A stretch of 64,000 nucleotides of DNA from Pyrobaculum sp. GTDB taxonomy: Archaea > Thermoproteota > Thermoprotei > Thermoproteales > Thermoproteaceae. Shown piece after piece: positions 5,752-51,717 of the stretch. The notes beneath the pieces were generated by a model, which searched no databases, was not told the DNA's origin, and saw only the letters and a list, made by a program, of their open reading frames with translations. The stretch covers positions 19,372 to 83,371 of the forward strand of contig JBKBOT010000004.1 of assembly GCA_046293555.1 (NCBI GenBank), written 5' to 3'. Every line of letters begins with the position of its first letter. The first letter of the stretch is position 1. The position numbers were made by a program, and so were the translations under genes.

Positions 5752-6341
5752 GACTTTGTGGCAGCCATTTTGAACATCTCGACGAGAGCTGGAACCTCCT
5801 CTGTGGCGTATCCACTCCGTTTCTTAAACGCCTCAGTTTGTGCAAACATAGTTGGCGCTAATTCTTTATCGCCCTCTATTAGGAGCTTGGCAATTAGCTG
5901 CGCCGCCCTCTCTGGATCTGCCGCCGGGTCTTTAAGGCCGTGTTTTTCGAAATATTTCATCATCATGGGGCCGCCGGCAGTGCCTTTCTCTACCCCCACG
6001 CTGCCTAACAGCGCTTTACTTAAGTCGGGGCCGAGGTTGCCCCCCACCTCAATGCCCACAGCCTTTACCGTGTGGCAAGCCACACAAGCCAGATCTTTAA
6101 ACAGCTGGATGCCCTTTTTGGCCAGCTCCTCGTTGTATTTAATCTGTAACGCCGGCGTGGCGGGAGCCCCGGGAGCCCCCGCGGTTATTGTCACCGGCGG
6201 CTCTGTAACTGTGGCGGCTGGCTCTGTAACTGTGGTGACTTTAGTCGCCGTCTTTACCTCGACAGCGGGCTGGTAGGTAAACGCCGCGGCGCCAATGATA
6301 ACTGCAATAATTGCTACAGCCAGATATATAGCTTTGCCCAT
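5748..6341 (-). CDS. Membrane-anchored monoheme cytochrome c (probable NirS electron donor)
   Basis: N-terminal TM, Thr/Pro stalk, CVACH, GPDLS; divergent from nirS. Confidence 0.88.
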   Translation of the reverse strand: MGKAIYLAVAIIAVIIGAAAFTYQPAVEVKTATKVTTVTEPAATVTEPPVTITAGAPGAPATPALQIKYNEELAKKGIQLFKDLACVACHTVKAVGIEVGGNLGPDLSKALLGSVGVEKGTAGGPMMMKYFEKHGLKDPAADPERAAQLIAKLLIEGDKELAPTMFAQTEAFKKRSGYATEEVPALVEMFKMAATKS

Positions 6342-45429: not shown

Positions 45430-46800
45430 ATGGAGGAACTTCTCCTCAGGGCTGTGGACTATGGGCTTCAGCTCGGGGCAGAGTATGTAGAGGCCAGGTG
45501 GCAACTAGACGTGGGGGAGGCGGCGGGGTTGCGAAATGGCGAGTTTGAGTTCTCCTCCACCTATAGACATGGGGGGGTCTCCATACGTGTGCTAGCCGGC
45601 GGGGGGCTTGGCTTCTCCGCCACGCCTAGGGTGGAGGTAGTGGACGTGTTGGGAGCCGTGGAGAGAGCCTATAGGCTCGCCAAAGCCGCTGGCTCTTTTA
45701 GAAAACGGCCTGTAGCCCTCAGCGAGGAGAGGCTGGCCAACGTGAGGTATTTCCTGCCGGAAGTCTCCACAAGCCCTCTAGAGGTGTTGAAAGAGCTAGA
45801 CGGCCATGTGGACCGTGGGCTGTCTGTACGTAGGCTTGTCGGCGCCGTGTGGCTTACTGAGAAGCTTGTTGTGACTAGCGACGGGGGTTATGTATATAGC
45901 AAAATCCCCCGCGTCTATGTTTTCGCCATGTTTATTAAACACGGCGCGGGGGGGAGTCTGCAGAGAGATCTATTTGCCGGCGGGGTTTCCCTAAAGGCGT
46001 TAAGGGGGTTTGAAAAAGTGGTGGAGGAGGAGTCTAGAAAGGTCTCCCTCCTGTTGGAAAAGGCGAGAGCCATAACGCCCGGCAGATACGACGTGGTGTT
46101 TAGCCCAGAGATGGCGGGCATATTGGTACACGAGTCTGTGGGGCACCCCTTTGAGCTAGATAGGATTTTCGGCCGGGAGGGCGCAGAGGCTGGGGAGTCA
46201 TACATAAGGCCTGGGGATCTATATGTAAAAATCGGCAGTGACCATGTAAATATTGTAGACAACCCGACGCTTCCGGAGACTTACGGCTTTTATCTAGTAG
46301 ACGACGAGGGAGTTGTGGCTAGACCCAAGTGGCTAGTCAGAGAGGGACGTGCCTCCGAGTTTATCTCCAATAGGCAATACGCCGCGTTGATCAATAGCCG
46401 TAGCAACGCCGGCGCTAGGGCTTCTGCTTTCGACAGAGAGCCTATCCCCAGGATGTCAAATACGTACCTCCTCCCCGGCGGCTGGAGCCCCGAGGAGATT
46501 ATTAGAGACACGAGGAGGGGAATATACGTGGTGTCATATACCGAGTGGAATATAGATGACGTGAGATATTCCGGCAGATATGGCATTTTTGAGGGGTATC
46601 TTATCGAGAATGGGGAGTTAAAACACCCAGTGAAGGGCTTTATTGAGGTAGACACGCCGGAGCTTTGGGGCGGGGTAGACGCGGTGGGGAAAGACTTCAA
46701 GCTTTTTGTTGGCACTTGCGGCAAGGGGAACCCCGTACAAGGCGTCCCCGTCACTATGGGCGGCCCCACCTTTAGGAGTAAGTCTCTTAGGGTGATATGA
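45430..46800 (+). CDS. tldD: TldD family metalloprotease
   Basis: HESVGHPFE, DDEG, PRMSNT, CGKG. Confidence 0.92.
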   Translation: MEELLLRAVDYGLQLGAEYVEARWQLDVGEAAGLRNGEFEFSSTYRHGGVSIRVLAGGGLGFSATPRVEVVDVLGAVERAYRLAKAAGSFRKRPVALSEERLANVRYFLPEVSTSPLEVLKELDGHVDRGLSVRRLVGAVWLTEKLVVTSDGGYVYSKIPRVYVFAMFIKHGAGGSLQRDLFAGGVSLKALRGFEKVVEEESRKVSLLLEKARAITPGRYDVVFSPEMAGILVHESVGHPFELDRIFGREGAEAGESYIRPGDLYVKIGSDHVNIVDNPTLPETYGFYLVDDEGVVARPKWLVREGRASEFISNRQYAALINSRSNAGARASAFDREPIPRMSNTYLLPGGWSPEEIIRDTRRGIYVVSYTEWNIDDVRYSGRYGIFEGYLIENGELKHPVKGFIEVDTPELWGGVDAVGKDFKLFVGTCGKGNPVQGVPVTMGGPTFRSKSLRVI

Positions 46801-48074
46801 TTCTCCGCTTGTTTTCCAACAGGGTGGATGAAGCCGCCTTGGTGAAAGTCTCACAGAAGAACTACATGGCGAGATTTGCTAACGACGAGGTGACTATATT
46901 TAAACACTGGACTTCCGAAAGCCTTTACCTATACCTAGCGAGGGGGAGGAGGGCCCTCTATGTAAACATGTCTGGAGGGTTGGACATACAGATGTTAGAA
47001 AGAGAGGTGAGACGTCTCTCCACACTGCCGGAAGACCCTCTTTACGTCCCGCTTGGAGGGCCCACGCCTGGCGTCTATCAAGAGCCTGAGGGAGACCCGG
47101 AGAGGCTTGTAGATCTGGTGAAAACCGCTGTGGATAACACGGAGGGGGTGGAGAGAAATGCCGGCGCGGCGCGTATGATTTACTCAACTGTGGAGTATGA
47201 AGACACCGCCGGCCGCACGGGCCGGTATGCGCTTAACAAGATCTTTCTCACCATGAGGTCTTTCGCCGGGGAGCTTTCTGTAACTAACACCGCTGCCGGA
47301 AGGCAGGAGGTAGACGCCAGGAGGCTAGCTGTCGCCAACTCGCAGCTGTTAAGTCTAGCCAGGGGGCTGCCGAAAAGGAGAGCTGAGGCCTCGAAAACAC
47401 GGCTGTTGCTCTCCCCAATTGTCTTTGGCCACCTCATGGGCGAGGTGGCCATGCATTGGGTCAACGGAGGGGAGGTCATAGCGCAAACCTCTCGGTACAC
47501 AAAAGAGGATTTGGGCAAGGAGGTGGCTTCTGAAAACTTGACTCTAGTGGAGACGACTTACTACCAACATGCCTACGGCTTTACTCCTTTCGACTTTGAG
47601 GGAATCCCGCCGAGGAGGGTGGGGATATTCGACAGGGGCGTGTTGAAAGAGTTTATACATAACCGACGTACTGCCGCCAGGCTTGGCGTAGAGTCTACTG
47701 GACACGCCCTAGGGGGTTGGGTCAGGCCCTCGCCTGGACATGTGGAAGTGGCGCCCGGCGATATTCCACACGACGTGGAGATATTAATGACAGAACTGAG
47801 GAGGGGGTATTACATACATAACAACTGGTATACAAGATATCAAAACGTCAAGACCGGCCAGTTCTCCACCGTGGGTAGAGATTTAGCGCTAGAGGTAATA
47901 GACGGGAGGCCTGTCGCCGTTGTGAAGTTTGTCAGAATTGCCGACACTTTAGAAAACATAGTGAGAAATATAGCGGCTCTCTCGAAAGAGGCAGAACAAG
48001 TGTATTGGTGGGATATGGTCGTGCCCGCCACTGCGCCTTATGCGATAATTCAAGACGTCGGGATAACCACGTGA
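46797..48074 (+). CDS. TldE/PmbA family protein
   Basis: Coupled to tldD; FDFEG, STGHA, no HExxxH. Confidence 0.85.
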   Translation: MILRLFSNRVDEAALVKVSQKNYMARFANDEVTIFKHWTSESLYLYLARGRRALYVNMSGGLDIQMLEREVRRLSTLPEDPLYVPLGGPTPGVYQEPEGDPERLVDLVKTAVDNTEGVERNAGAARMIYSTVEYEDTAGRTGRYALNKIFLTMRSFAGELSVTNTAAGRQEVDARRLAVANSQLLSLARGLPKRRAEASKTRLLLSPIVFGHLMGEVAMHWVNGGEVIAQTSRYTKEDLGKEVASENLTLVETTYYQHAYGFTPFDFEGIPPRRVGIFDRGVLKEFIHNRRTAARLGVESTGHALGGWVRPSPGHVEVAPGDIPHDVEILMTELRRGYYIHNNWYTRYQNVKTGQFSTVGRDLALEVIDGRPVAVVKFVRIADTLENIVRNIAALSKEAEQVYWWDMVVPATAPYAIIQDVGITT

Positions 48075-48106
48075 AAATTTAAAAAGCCGCTAATTATATA
48101 TACATA

Positions 48107-48195
48107 GCGGCCGTAGCTCAGCGGGAGAGTAATGCCCCGAAAGCGCCCGGCTGAAGACCGGGCGGTCCCGGGTTCAAGTCCCGGCGGCCGCACCA
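48107..48195 (+). tRNA. tRNA-Phe(GAA) with a 14-nt intron at position 22/23 (48128-48141); CCA encoded
   Basis: Acceptor GCGGCCG/CGGCCGC, anticodon arm CCCGG-CTGAAGA-CCGGG, T arm CCGGG-TTCAAGT-CCCGG; BHB-like CGGG-AG|A...CCCG-AA|A; TTTAAAAA upstream. Confidence 0.92.
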
Positions 48196-49520
48196 TCTTC
48201 TCGATATTACTTTCCTCTTTCATCACGCCGTTTTTCGCCACAGCCCTAAGTGTCGCTCTCCCCTCCATAGCTAGAGAGTTCGTAATTCCCTCTAGCTCCA
48301 CCTTAGGCCTACTGGTGGCATTAACTACGGCAATCGCCGCGTTTGTCCTCCCGGCTGGCCAACTTGCCGACATGAAAGGCTATGCGAGAATATTTAGGGC
48401 CGGCCTTTTGATAGTCCTAACGGGACTTGTCGTAACCTCTGCTGCCCTCACGCCGGCGTGGCTTTACGCCGGCTTGACTATAGCCGGCTTAGGGCTCGCC
48501 ATGGTGTTTGGCAGTAACAACGCCTTGTTGATCCAGTTGGCGCCCCCGGGGAGGCGGGCGTCTCTAGTGGGGCTAAACTCCATGGCGGTATATATAGGCT
48601 TGGTTTTAGGCCCGCCGACAGGCGGCATGTTGGCTGAAATAAGCTGGAGGCTAGTCTTCCTGCCGGCAATTGCGTTAGGCGTTATCTCTTATCTCCTCTC
48701 TTGTGGCATAAAGTCAAAGGGGGCTGCCGGCAGGTTAGACCTCCTGGGGGCAGTGGGGTGGGGCGCCACGGCCGTCTTGTTGATACTTGGCACGCAGAAA
48801 TACCAACTGTTGGCCTTTGGGCTTTTGGCCTTGTTGTTAACTCTATTGGCAGAACGCAAGGCTGTAAACCCGCTTATAGACCCCGCCTCTTTTAAAAACG
48901 TGGTTTTTTCAGCCTCTGTAGCTGCCTCGTTTTTAAATTATCTCTCCACAGCTGCCCTCATCCCCGTGTTGAGTCTATTATTTCAGGAGACATACGCCCT
49001 CTCCCCCGGAGTGACCGGCTGGATACTCGCCCTACAGGCGTTAGCCATGGCCGTGTTAGCCCCCATATCGGGGAGAATTAGCGATAGGCTATCCCCGCCC
49101 GCTGTGGCCACGGCAGGTTCGGCCGTATTGGCCGGAGGCCTCCTGTTATGTGCCCACACGCCCCACCCAATGTGGGCTATCCCCTCCCTGTTTATAATCG
49201 GCGTCGGCTTTGCCCTCTTTATAGTTCCTAACACCACAATTATACTCACCACAGCCGCCTCTAGAGGCTTTGGGTCGGCCGTAGTTGCAACATCTAGAGT
49301 ATTAGGCCAATCTATGAGTAACGCCCTGGCCGTATATATGTTAAGAGATGTCACGCCTGAAGAAGTGGCCAAATTGTTGTTCTTACTAGTAATCTTTGCA
49401 GTGATGTCAGCCTTCCTCTCGGCAGTTCGCCTATCTAAAGTCAGGAAGGGGGCTTACAGCTGTCTGCAAGACTTAAGCTGTCTGACGGCAATATTAAAAC
49501 AATCTACATTAGCCCATTAG
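48132..49520 (+). CDS. MFS drug/H+ antiporter (DHA2-like); start uncertain, frame overlaps tRNA-Phe
   Basis: SVALPSI, PAGQLADMKG, G.VLGP..GG.L...SWR.VF, SGRISDR. Confidence 0.8.
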   Translation: MPRKRPAEDRAVPGSSPGGRTIFSILLSSFITPFFATALSVALPSIAREFVIPSSSTLGLLVALTTAIAAFVLPAGQLADMKGYARIFRAGLLIVLTGLVVTSAALTPAWLYAGLTIAGLGLAMVFGSNNALLIQLAPPGRRASLVGLNSMAVYIGLVLGPPTGGMLAEISWRLVFLPAIALGVISYLLSCGIKSKGAAGRLDLLGAVGWGATAVLLILGTQKYQLLAFGLLALLLTLLAERKAVNPLIDPASFKNVVFSASVAASFLNYLSTAALIPVLSLLFQETYALSPGVTGWILALQALAMAVLAPISGRISDRLSPPAVATAGSAVLAGGLLLCAHTPHPMWAIPSLFIIGVGFALFIVPNTTIILTTAASRGFGSAVVATSRVLGQSMSNALAVYMLRDVTPEEVAKLLFLLVIFAVMSAFLSAVRLSKVRKGAYSCLQDLSCLTAILKQSTLAH

Positions 49521-51606: not shown

Positions 51607-51717
51607 GCGGCGGTAGTCTAGCCTGGTTTAGGATGGCGGCCTTCCACGCCGCTGCGAGGAAAGCCGTTGATCCCGGGAGGGCAAACCCCGGGAGTTCGAA
51701 TCCCGGCCGCCGCACCA
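51607..51717 (+). tRNA. tRNA-Gly(TCC) with two introns: 37/38 (51647-51661) and 53/54 (51678-51694)
   Basis: Acceptor GCGGCGG/CCGCCGC-ACCA; removing both segments restores the anticodon arm GCGGC-CTTCCAA-GCCGT and T arm CCGGG-TTCGAAT-CCCGG; both fold as BHB-like motifs. Confidence 0.9.

Follow-up and report, generated by a model that had tools for sequence, protein, structure and literature searches.

The stretch of DNA analysed here (hereafter the window) comprises 64,000 nucleotides of a Pyrobaculum genome (assembly GCA_046293555.1, contig JBKBOT010000004.1). In it, a gene for tRNA-Phe runs directly into a gene for a transporter of the major facilitator superfamily (MFS). Judged from the sequence, the architecture is unusual: an essential single-copy tRNA is fused base-to-base with a protein-coding gene that is under selection and has no start codon outside the tRNA. 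This fused arrangement has persisted over a divergence that has saturated the synonymous sites. Because a selected gene without a promoter of its own is concerned, it can be firmly inferred that the MFS gene must be read from the tRNA transcription unit, either from the tRNA promoter or from an upstream TldD operon through it. Translation would begin at an AUG (GUG in a sister species) inside the intron of the unspliced tRNA precursor. Among the explanations considered, this is the one preferred here, with a probability of roughly 0.4.

The tRNA-Phe gene and its intron

The window belongs to a Pyrobaculum assembly of 145 contigs that is 96% complete (G000), and the comparison set consisted of 18 genomes of the genus. 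The elements that take part in the fusion are given below.

48107..48127, plus strand: exon 1 of tRNA-Phe (acceptor 5' strand, D-stem 5' strand, D-loop and G22)
48128..48141, plus strand: 14-nt tRNA intron at position 22/23, located by comparison with intronless orthologous tRNAs and by local fold
48132..48134, plus strand: ATG in the apical part of the intron, the sole canonical in-frame start upstream of MFS helix 1
48142..48195, plus strand: exon 2 of tRNA-Phe (to A48192) and the encoded CCA, which read KRPAEDRAVPGSSPGGRT in the MFS frame
48193..48200, plus strand: CCATCTTC, the ancestral tRNA-Phe trailer, followed by the deletion junction
48201..49520, plus strand: MFS-derived coding sequence, from about ancestral residue 7 (S-I-L-L-S-S-F) to the stop codon

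The tRNA was detected at 48107–48192 with Rfam RF00005 (57 bits, cut-off 29, E 1.1e-11, model positions 1–71 in full), and a search of the whole genome with this family returned the same score of 57 bits for the gene. The discriminator A48192 is directly followed by an encoded CCA (48193–48195). The anticodon arm, CCCGG-CTGAAGA-CCGGG, has a 7-nt loop and a 5-bp stem, and the loop, read by eye, carries GAA, which identifies a tRNA-Phe(GAA). The exons equal the intronless tRNA-Phe genes of Pyrobaculum except for one base in the T-loop. ARAGORN called either a tRNA-Ser or a “Phe(aaa)” with a misplaced intron at this place. Both were rejected as miscalls, since an intron in the D-arm is not expected by this program.

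In the alignment with intronless relatives, the window reads GGGAG, then AGTAATGCCCCGAA as the intron, and then AGCGCC. Five species of the same genus have an intronless GGGAGAGCGCCCGG, to which GGGAG-AGTAATGCCCCGAA-AGCGCCCGG corresponds in the window. When read by hand, this region forms a motif of the bulge-helix-bulge (BHB) type, consisting of a central 4-bp helix, CGGG (48122–48125) with CCCG (48136–48139), and the bulges AG/A and AA/A. The central helix and its flanking bulges fix the position of the intron, which can thus be placed exactly at 48128–48141. The same CGGG:CCCG helix is paired in a local fold. The outer helix of the motif is weak, which corresponds to a relaxed form, and excision of 48128–48141 restores the D-stem GAGC. 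The intron of the sister species (G001) has the same helix and the same bulges. Minimum-free-energy folds of the whole pre-tRNA at 37 °C did not yield the cloverleaf and were set aside. For archaeal tRNAs, 22/23 is one of the non-canonical intron sites named in the available part of PMC4090602. The initial annotation had described a tRNA-Phe with a 14-nt intron, and all of its coordinates agree with the Rfam match, the intronless tRNAs of relatives and the BHB motif.

Only one tRNA-Phe gene was found in the 96%-complete assembly of G000 by means of the 43 Rfam tRNA matches, a regular expression, a pattern search with two mismatches, and inspection of near-misses by eye. For this reason, the tRNA-Phe gene must itself be expressed, though at this completeness a second copy may have been missed. 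Two candidates for a second copy, an ARAGORN “Phe” at C10:52870 and one pattern match with two mismatches, were inspected and are not tRNA-Phe. In G000, in G001 and in a further genome, G011, there is one perfect Phe anticodon arm each, and two matches with two mismatches in G001 proved not to be tRNAs.

Loss of the ancestral start

The MFS frame is open from 48117 to 49520 and is preceded by a TAG at 48114–48116. The product matches Pfam PF07690 (MFS_1) with 108.4 bits (cut-off 33.4, E 4.8e-31) from ORF (open reading frame) residue 25 onwards. Helix 1 begins at the CCA of the tRNA, and the frame overlaps the tRNA gene in the sense direction. Ten orthologues from the same genus align from query residue 1–3 to about 412–419 with 46–57% identity, and helix 1 aligns with them residue for residue. 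The source labels of the relatives are MFS, and those of the distant ones are DHA2/EmrB-QacA-type.

Thirteen orthologues were examined with respect to their starts. The 11 from the same genus begin with M/V-(D/N/R)-R-x-L, 4–5 residues before the SSF motif of helix 1, and GTG serves as the start codon in four orthologues. At the corresponding codons, the window has GGC GGC CGC ACC ATC, that is, the acceptor 3' strand, the discriminator, the CCA and the trailer of the tRNA; in G001, these codons are likewise occupied by the tRNA acceptor strand. Therefore, the ancestral MFS start was replaced, not mutated, since the 3' end of the tRNA stands in its place. A normal start just behind the tRNA that is merely mutated in this genome, which the initial annotation had named as evidence against its reading, is thus not what the comparison reveals. 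The suggestion that the gene is 5'-truncated is right in the historical sense that the tRNA 3' end took the place of the ancestral start, and wrong in so far as the gene is not decaying.

The position of the junction follows from two comparisons. In G004, the identical 8 nt (CCATCTTC) come after the tRNA-Phe, and contigs of sequencing run X1 that carry the tRNA-Phe of another organism match the window to 48199 and then diverge. As 48193–48200 represents tRNA trailer by both comparisons, the MFS-derived sequence starts at about 48201.

The order TldD1-TldD2-[tRNA-Phe]-MFS-nuoC-nuoB is kept in G002, G005, G006, G008 and G012, while in G017 only the tRNA-MFS-nuoC/nuoB part lies within the stretch that was examined. 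The distance from the tRNA to the MFS gene in those genomes is 1.2–3.4 kb, mostly with the tRNA on the opposite strand. In G015, the tRNA stands 264 nt upstream of the MFS gene on the same strand, in a different neighbourhood. The MFS genes of G006 and G008 are 98% identical, yet their tRNA-Phe genes have opposite orientations (L042 6684–6758; L041 6916–6990), which suggests a local inversion or a replacement of the tRNA gene. The region is prone to rearrangement, as the orientation and distance of the tRNA vary among relatives. The interval from TldD2 to the MFS gene is itself variable across the genus (2.5–4.8 kb). The acceptor stem of the G006 tRNA differs by paired changes (GCCACCG...CGGTGGC vs. 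GCGGCCG...CGGCCGC).

From these comparisons, we infer as the simplest history that the common ancestor of G000 and G001 underwent a deletion which fused the genes in frame. Such a deletion would have removed the interval between the tRNA and the MFS gene, including the MFS promoter and about the first 6 codons, and would have joined MFS codon ~7 in frame to the 8-nt tRNA trailer.

There is no match to the MFS gene in G007, G009, G011 and G016, and because four species are without it, the gene can be dispensed with under some circumstances. Behind the tRNA-Phe of G007, 14–26 nt past the CCA, 13 nt (TTACTTTCCTCTT) are identical to the MFS codons I-L-L-S-S-F. The score of 26 compares with a shuffle maximum of 25, and the match may be due to chance in pyrimidine-rich sequence or be a remnant of the gene.

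Recurrence of the junction

The sister species G001 has the same junction at the same base, together with a 17-nt intron, CGTGGCGCAACCCCGAA, that contains an in-frame GTG. The placement of G001 as a sister is supported by 81/72 in the TldD2 tree and by 100/100 in the MFS tree. A match to the window that extends past the tRNA into the MFS gene is found in G001 alone among the 18 genomes of the genus. An independent assembly of run X1, which is possibly the source sample, covers 47900–48900 with 0 differences. A third occurrence comes from run X2 of another study, in which there is a relative with approximately 87–89% DNA identity. A 27-kb contig of this run covers 47900–48192 and ends there, and a contig of 294 nt bridges 48163–48384, from the tRNA into the MFS gene, at about 87% identity. 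No changes are found at 48107–48137 among the differences listed for the X2 relative, and positions 48138–48205 are not readable there, as the depth is inflated by tRNAs of other organisms.

The scan for further cases, performed with the 22-nt 3' half of the tRNA, gave none among 19 metagenome loci, several of which represent tRNA-Phe with different introns. When 5.8 billion proteins were searched, 19 matches were obtained, of which only the window's own protein and that of G001 exceed 52% identity, and a search for shorter proteins with MFS residues 1–110 found nothing.

Selection on the MFS gene

Sequence divergence indicates that the MFS transporter gene stayed functional after the fusion. 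Between G000 and G001, the proportion of differing synonymous sites (pS) is 0.70 and that of nonsynonymous sites (pN) 0.256 over 402 codons, which corresponds to an NG86 ratio of nonsynonymous to synonymous substitution (dN/dS) of about 0.15. All seven pairs of orthologues with ordinary starts gave values of 0.14–0.25, so the fused gene evolves like its normally started orthologues. In three comparisons of G000 with normally started orthologues, pS was too saturated for a ratio. The G000 frame is intact over 441 codons, and the marks of a pseudogene, namely stops or frameshifts and a dN/dS near 1, are not seen in it.

The first helix is conserved in the same manner. Within codons 4–30 after the discriminator, G000 and G001 show 14 synonymous and 4 replacement changes, with 9 codons identical. 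The X2 relative has 19 listed substitutions in 48206–48341, affecting 17 of 45 codons, and these codon changes are synonymous in 10 cases and conservative replacements in 7. This pattern bears on a start at one of the next canonical in-frame codons, GTG 48315 (residue 62) or ATG 48372 (residue 81), which would produce a transporter devoid of helices 1–2 and turn the upstream part into an untranslated leader. The supposed leader is conserved as protein and not as RNA, and helix 1 of every orthologue lines up with it residue by residue. Given the 14 synonymous against 4 replacement changes, helix 1 is translated and downstream starts are therefore excluded; that they are nevertheless used is extremely improbable.

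Another explanation would be that the fusion ended the expression of the gene and that the MFS frame is a silent relic, a pseudogene that has not yet decayed. The own start and promoter are gone, the G001 copy carries a frameshift, and the gene is missing from the four genomes named above. Additionally, the stem branch of G000 and G001 is long, with 0.58 for MFS vs. 0.14 for TldD2. The substitution pattern speaks against this explanation, as pS is saturated at 0.70 while pN is 0.26, and drift over such a distance would have littered with stops the 441-codon frame, which is intact in G000; the counts for helix 1 and for the X2 relative point the same way. Terminal branch rates are not raised: the MFS branches of G000 (0.37) and G001 (0.47) are 1.4 times the TldD2 branches (0.27 and 0.33), compared with 1.4–3 times in other lineages. 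Even past the frameshift, the C-terminal 99 codons of G001, which lie in another frame, retain 69% protein identity to G000. A silent relic is thus quite unlikely.

Proposed transcription from the tRNA promoter

Two features on the upstream side are relevant to the transcription of the fused genes.

46797..48074, plus strand: second gene of the TldD/PmbA family (Pfam PmbA_TldD_3rd, 8.3e-45), the stop of which is 3 nt before the tRNA promoter
48074..48085, plus strand: candidate tRNA promoter with a BRE-like (B recognition element) AAAA at 48074–48077 and the TATA box TTTAAAAA at 48078–48085

The end of the TATA box is 21 nt away from tRNA +1, and the block of AAAA and TTTAAAAA is kept in G001. 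By eye, such a block was recognised in front of most of the 43 tRNA genes of G000, where it ends 21–22 nt ahead of the mature 5' end. The 48074–48085 block would accordingly serve as the tRNA promoter, and the uniform spacing implies that tRNA transcripts in G000 probably have little or no 5' leader. The block is absent from tRNA-Glu at C5:28728 and C8:39664, which have a different, G+C-rich upstream sequence in common. At 45430–48074, there are two tandem genes of the TldD/PmbA family with overlapping stop and start codons (ATGA at 46797–46800). No T-run terminator is present between the TldD genes and the tRNA promoter, so read-through of the operon into the tRNA is possible.

Between the tRNA and the MFS frame, there is no TATA-like block, as MFS helix 1 directly adjoins the CCA. 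Space for an MFS promoter is lacking too, because its TATA position would fall in the T-arm (the TATA boxes of tRNA genes in this genome lie at −29 to −22). The statement of the initial annotation that no promoter space is left after the tRNA proved accurate. The tRNA-Phe gene is singular in this respect: of the 43 Rfam tRNAs of G000, only this one precedes a long co-directional frame without a canonical start soon after. Behind the other tRNAs, there are six long co-directional frames, all with a canonical start at +12 to +52, and several of them have a TATA-like block directly behind the tRNA.

The MFS gene would consequently be transcribed by read-through from the tRNA-Phe promoter at 48074–48085, and possibly also from the TldD operon. 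A second promoter nested in this region is a further option, with TTATATATAC at 48094–48103 as the TATA box. The transcript would start at about 48124, could not fold into a tRNA, and would have the intron ATG behind a leader of about 7 nt. This fits the spacing rule of the genome (TATA end ~22 nt before the start) and would remove the competition with tRNA processing. An A-rich BRE is lacking before TTATATATAC, though, and TATATA-like stretches at −15 to −5 precede several other tRNA genes of G000 (for example C1:98855, C10:52870, C8:1851), as expected for an ordinary AT-rich proximal element. Moreover, the box is absent in G001, and three of its bases differ in the X2 relative. For these reasons, a nested promoter is highly unlikely.

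A possible signal within the MFS gene was considered as well.

48231..48235, plus strand: T5 run within P-F-F codons, 39 nt after the tRNA, a candidate leaky archaeal terminator

A T6 is present at the same place in G001, and there is at most a T4 in 10 orthologues. As the X2 relative has a CTT codon there, the T run was downgraded to a weak candidate for a conserved attenuator.

Start of translation

Apart from the intron ATG, two codons come into question as starts.

48195..48197, plus strand: ATC, an in-frame near-cognate codon 2 nt past the predicted tRNase Z site (ATA in G001)
48204..48206, plus strand: ATA, the start in the public annotation (438-aa product “MLLSSF...”), which is an annotation choice and not evidence

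The ORF scan bore out that the frame is open back through the tRNA and that ATG 48132 is the sole start before helix 1, the next being GTG 48315. The intron start is further favoured by G001, in which the intron has diverged and gained 3 nt while the frame is kept, with a GTG two codons upstream of the position of the G000 ATG. Further points in its favour are the X2 relative, with no listed change at 48107–48137, and the precedent of C/D box sRNA genes in the same genus that carry the start of an ORF (PMC6009581). The predicted product begins with MPRKRPAEDR and includes MPRKRPAEDRAVPGSSPGGR in its tail.

In the mechanism that is proposed here, some primary transcripts would be engaged by ribosomes at the intron AUG (48132; GUG in G001) before folding, splicing and the 3' cut occur. 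They would give a transporter with a basic N-terminal tail of 21 residues derived from tRNA exon 2. If folding and processing come first, a transcript would become tRNA-Phe, and the start codon would be lost with the intron. That these fates are mutually exclusive, so that ribosome-first transcripts yield the transporter and fold-first transcripts proceed through splicing and tRNase Z cleavage to tRNA-Phe, is a possibility put forward only tentatively.

Several observations weigh against a start in the intron. One comes from G011, the tRNA-Phe of which has a 22/23 intron with an ATG in the same frame, although the genome has no MFS match. The frame from this ATG stops 9 codons past the CCA, and 29 nt behind the tRNA begins an unrelated ORF that has an ATG of its own. 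An ATG can hence be present in frame in the intron and yet be unused, and since G011 is a basal lineage, the intron ATG is probably of greater age than the fusion, and selection on it need not be assumed. The AUG is also embedded in the splicing motif of a pre-tRNA rich in G+C, at a distance of 25 nt from the 5' end. A GGGAG is present upstream of it (48123–48127), and this is D-loop sequence: what precedes the AUG is only a 4-nt GGAG of the universal D-loop, and in G001 it is separated from the GTG by 1 nt. No 16S rRNA gene, from which the anti-Shine-Dalgarno sequence would be read, was found in the G000 assembly. The 21-residue tail has no counterpart in any orthologue. In the MFS gene of G001, the frame is shifted once, in a loop close to codon 330 (L038, G001:C8, ~6105–6140). 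The shift is present in the NCBI, ENA and Logan protein versions, and given this frameshift, the G001 start may no longer be under selection. The junction in two assembled genomes and one fragmentary lineage represents one evolutionary event, and the four sequencing runs listed with this DNA include none of RNA.

The tRNA-Phe of G011 (G011:C27:20360–20470) has a second, 18-nt intron in the T-arm and is located directly behind nuoC on the same strand.

Alternatively, the start could be created by the processing of the tRNA. After a tRNase Z cut behind A48192, an RNA beginning with CC-AUC (UA-AUA in G001) would be translated in a leaderless-like manner from the AUC/AUA, or from AUA 48204. In such a case, a tRNA and an mRNA would both arise from every transcript, with the transporter kept scarce by the weak start. 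Mitochondrial mRNAs that are released by tRNA excision and start with AUA or AUU are the textbook analogue. Counted from the discriminator, positions +3 to +5 form an AUH codon in both genomes (AUC in G000, AUA in G001), and its A and T are the sole trailer bases, out of 8, that agree between G000 and G001. The resulting N-terminus is within 4 residues of the start of the orthologues, and the codon is aligned with their Leu-5 codon, a TTG in most cases. Four orthologues are already on GTG starts, and the public annotation also resorts to ATA.

The same observations can be read differently. Selection that keeps a hydrophobic Ile at the margin of helix 1 would account equally well for the conserved AT, and an AUG at this position, only one change away, is found in no lineage; the X2 relative has an ATG at 48222 instead, inside helix 1. 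The processed RNA would have a 5' monophosphate, which is a disadvantage for stability and for leaderless initiation. In favour of this route, leaderless mRNAs are reported to be prevalent in P. aerophilum; against it, AUG, GUG and UUG are the only archaeal start codons named in the accessible text of the same source (PMC7531240). A start generated by tRNase Z is, on this evidence, possible and yet rather unlikely.

Concerning the intron start, the idea of the initial annotation that the unspliced pre-tRNA could act as the mRNA was strengthened in one part, the dependence on the tRNA transcript, by the missing own promoter and start, by purifying selection, and by the junction in G001 and the X2 relative. 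For the start in the intron, the GTG of G001 speaks in favour, and the ATG of G011 speaks against reading the intron ATG as selected. A non-canonical start, which had been named as an alternative, stays live with AUC/AUA at +3 after the discriminator in both genomes. Public start calls differ in the same way: P0001, the protein of the window, starts at ATA 48204 with 438 aa, and P0002 of G001 at the GTG in the tRNA intron, with 356 aa to the frameshift.

Comparison with known systems

In mitochondria, the arrangement known as tRNA punctuation lets an mRNA begin directly at a tRNA 3' end, so that its 5' end is made by tRNA processing, and AUA, AUU or AUC can serve as starts. The locus resembles this arrangement, as only a few bases separate the site of tRNA 3' processing from the beginning of the coding sequence, with AUC/AUA at +3. 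It differs in belonging to a free-living archaeon with promoter-per-gene organisation, in which it is the sole case among 43 tRNA genes, and in the starts to be expected, since archaeal ones other than AUG, GUG and UUG are not named in the available part of PMC7531240.

In another respect, the locus can be compared with operons of tRNA and mRNA. Bacteria have such operons, in which one promoter gives one primary transcript, for instance the Escherichia coli tRNA cluster upstream of tufB. In these operons, the protein gene has an AUG of its own outside the tRNA, together with a spacer and a ribosome-binding site, and the MFS gene of the window does not.

Another precedent is found within the genus. 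C/D box sRNA genes of Pyrobaculum overlap the 5' ends of ORFs in the sense direction, with the ORF's start codon within the sRNA, and co-transcription was inferred in the parts available of PMC6009581. That each transcript is either excised into the RNA or used as an mRNA is discussed there by Lui et al. (2018), and the sRNA sR44, which stands 8 nt behind a tRNA-Met, is described as probably co-transcribed with it (PMC6009581). The locus has in common with these overlaps the genus, a stable-RNA gene over the 5' end of an ORF in the sense direction, and no separate promoter. Unlike in these cases, the stable RNA is an essential single-copy tRNA and not a guide sRNA, the candidate start is in a tRNA intron that is spliced out, and about 60 nt of tRNA exon would be translated.

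The intron itself is an ordinary member of the non-canonical BHB introns of Thermoproteales, as far as they are covered by the accessible portion of Yoshihisa (2014; PMC4090602): it is at site 22/23, it is short, and it has a relaxed BHB/HBh' form. The presence and position of such introns vary between close species. Only the possible second role of the intron, that of providing a start codon, would be new. In the accessible parts of the literature searched, which did not cover subscription journals, no protein was described whose start lies within a tRNA intron.

We know of no agreed function of archaeal tRNA introns beyond tolerance. If the intron does supply the sole canonical start of a selected gene, a concrete function would be at hand, and the output of the transporter would be inversely coupled to the efficiency of pre-tRNA-Phe processing. 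Whichever start is used, the locus represents a natural experiment on how a crenarchaeal start is chosen without a Shine-Dalgarno sequence and a 5'-terminal AUG. It also bears on whether tRNA 3' processing makes translatable mRNAs outside organelles and on how a gene survives the loss of its promoter by capturing that of a neighbouring stable RNA. There is a lesson for annotation too, as the public calls for two species disagree between an ATA after the tRNA and a GTG inside the intron.

Other features of the region

At its 3' end, the MFS gene overlaps the convergent nuoC by 12 nt (49509–49520), and the C-terminus of the G000 protein is about 20 residues longer than those of its orthologues. 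A second tRNA of the window is located at 51607–51714 on the plus strand (G000:C4:70978–71085) and scores 40 bits on Rfam. ARAGORN with its intron option identifies it as a tRNA-Ser(TGA) with a 15-nt intron, and it is missed when introns are not searched for.

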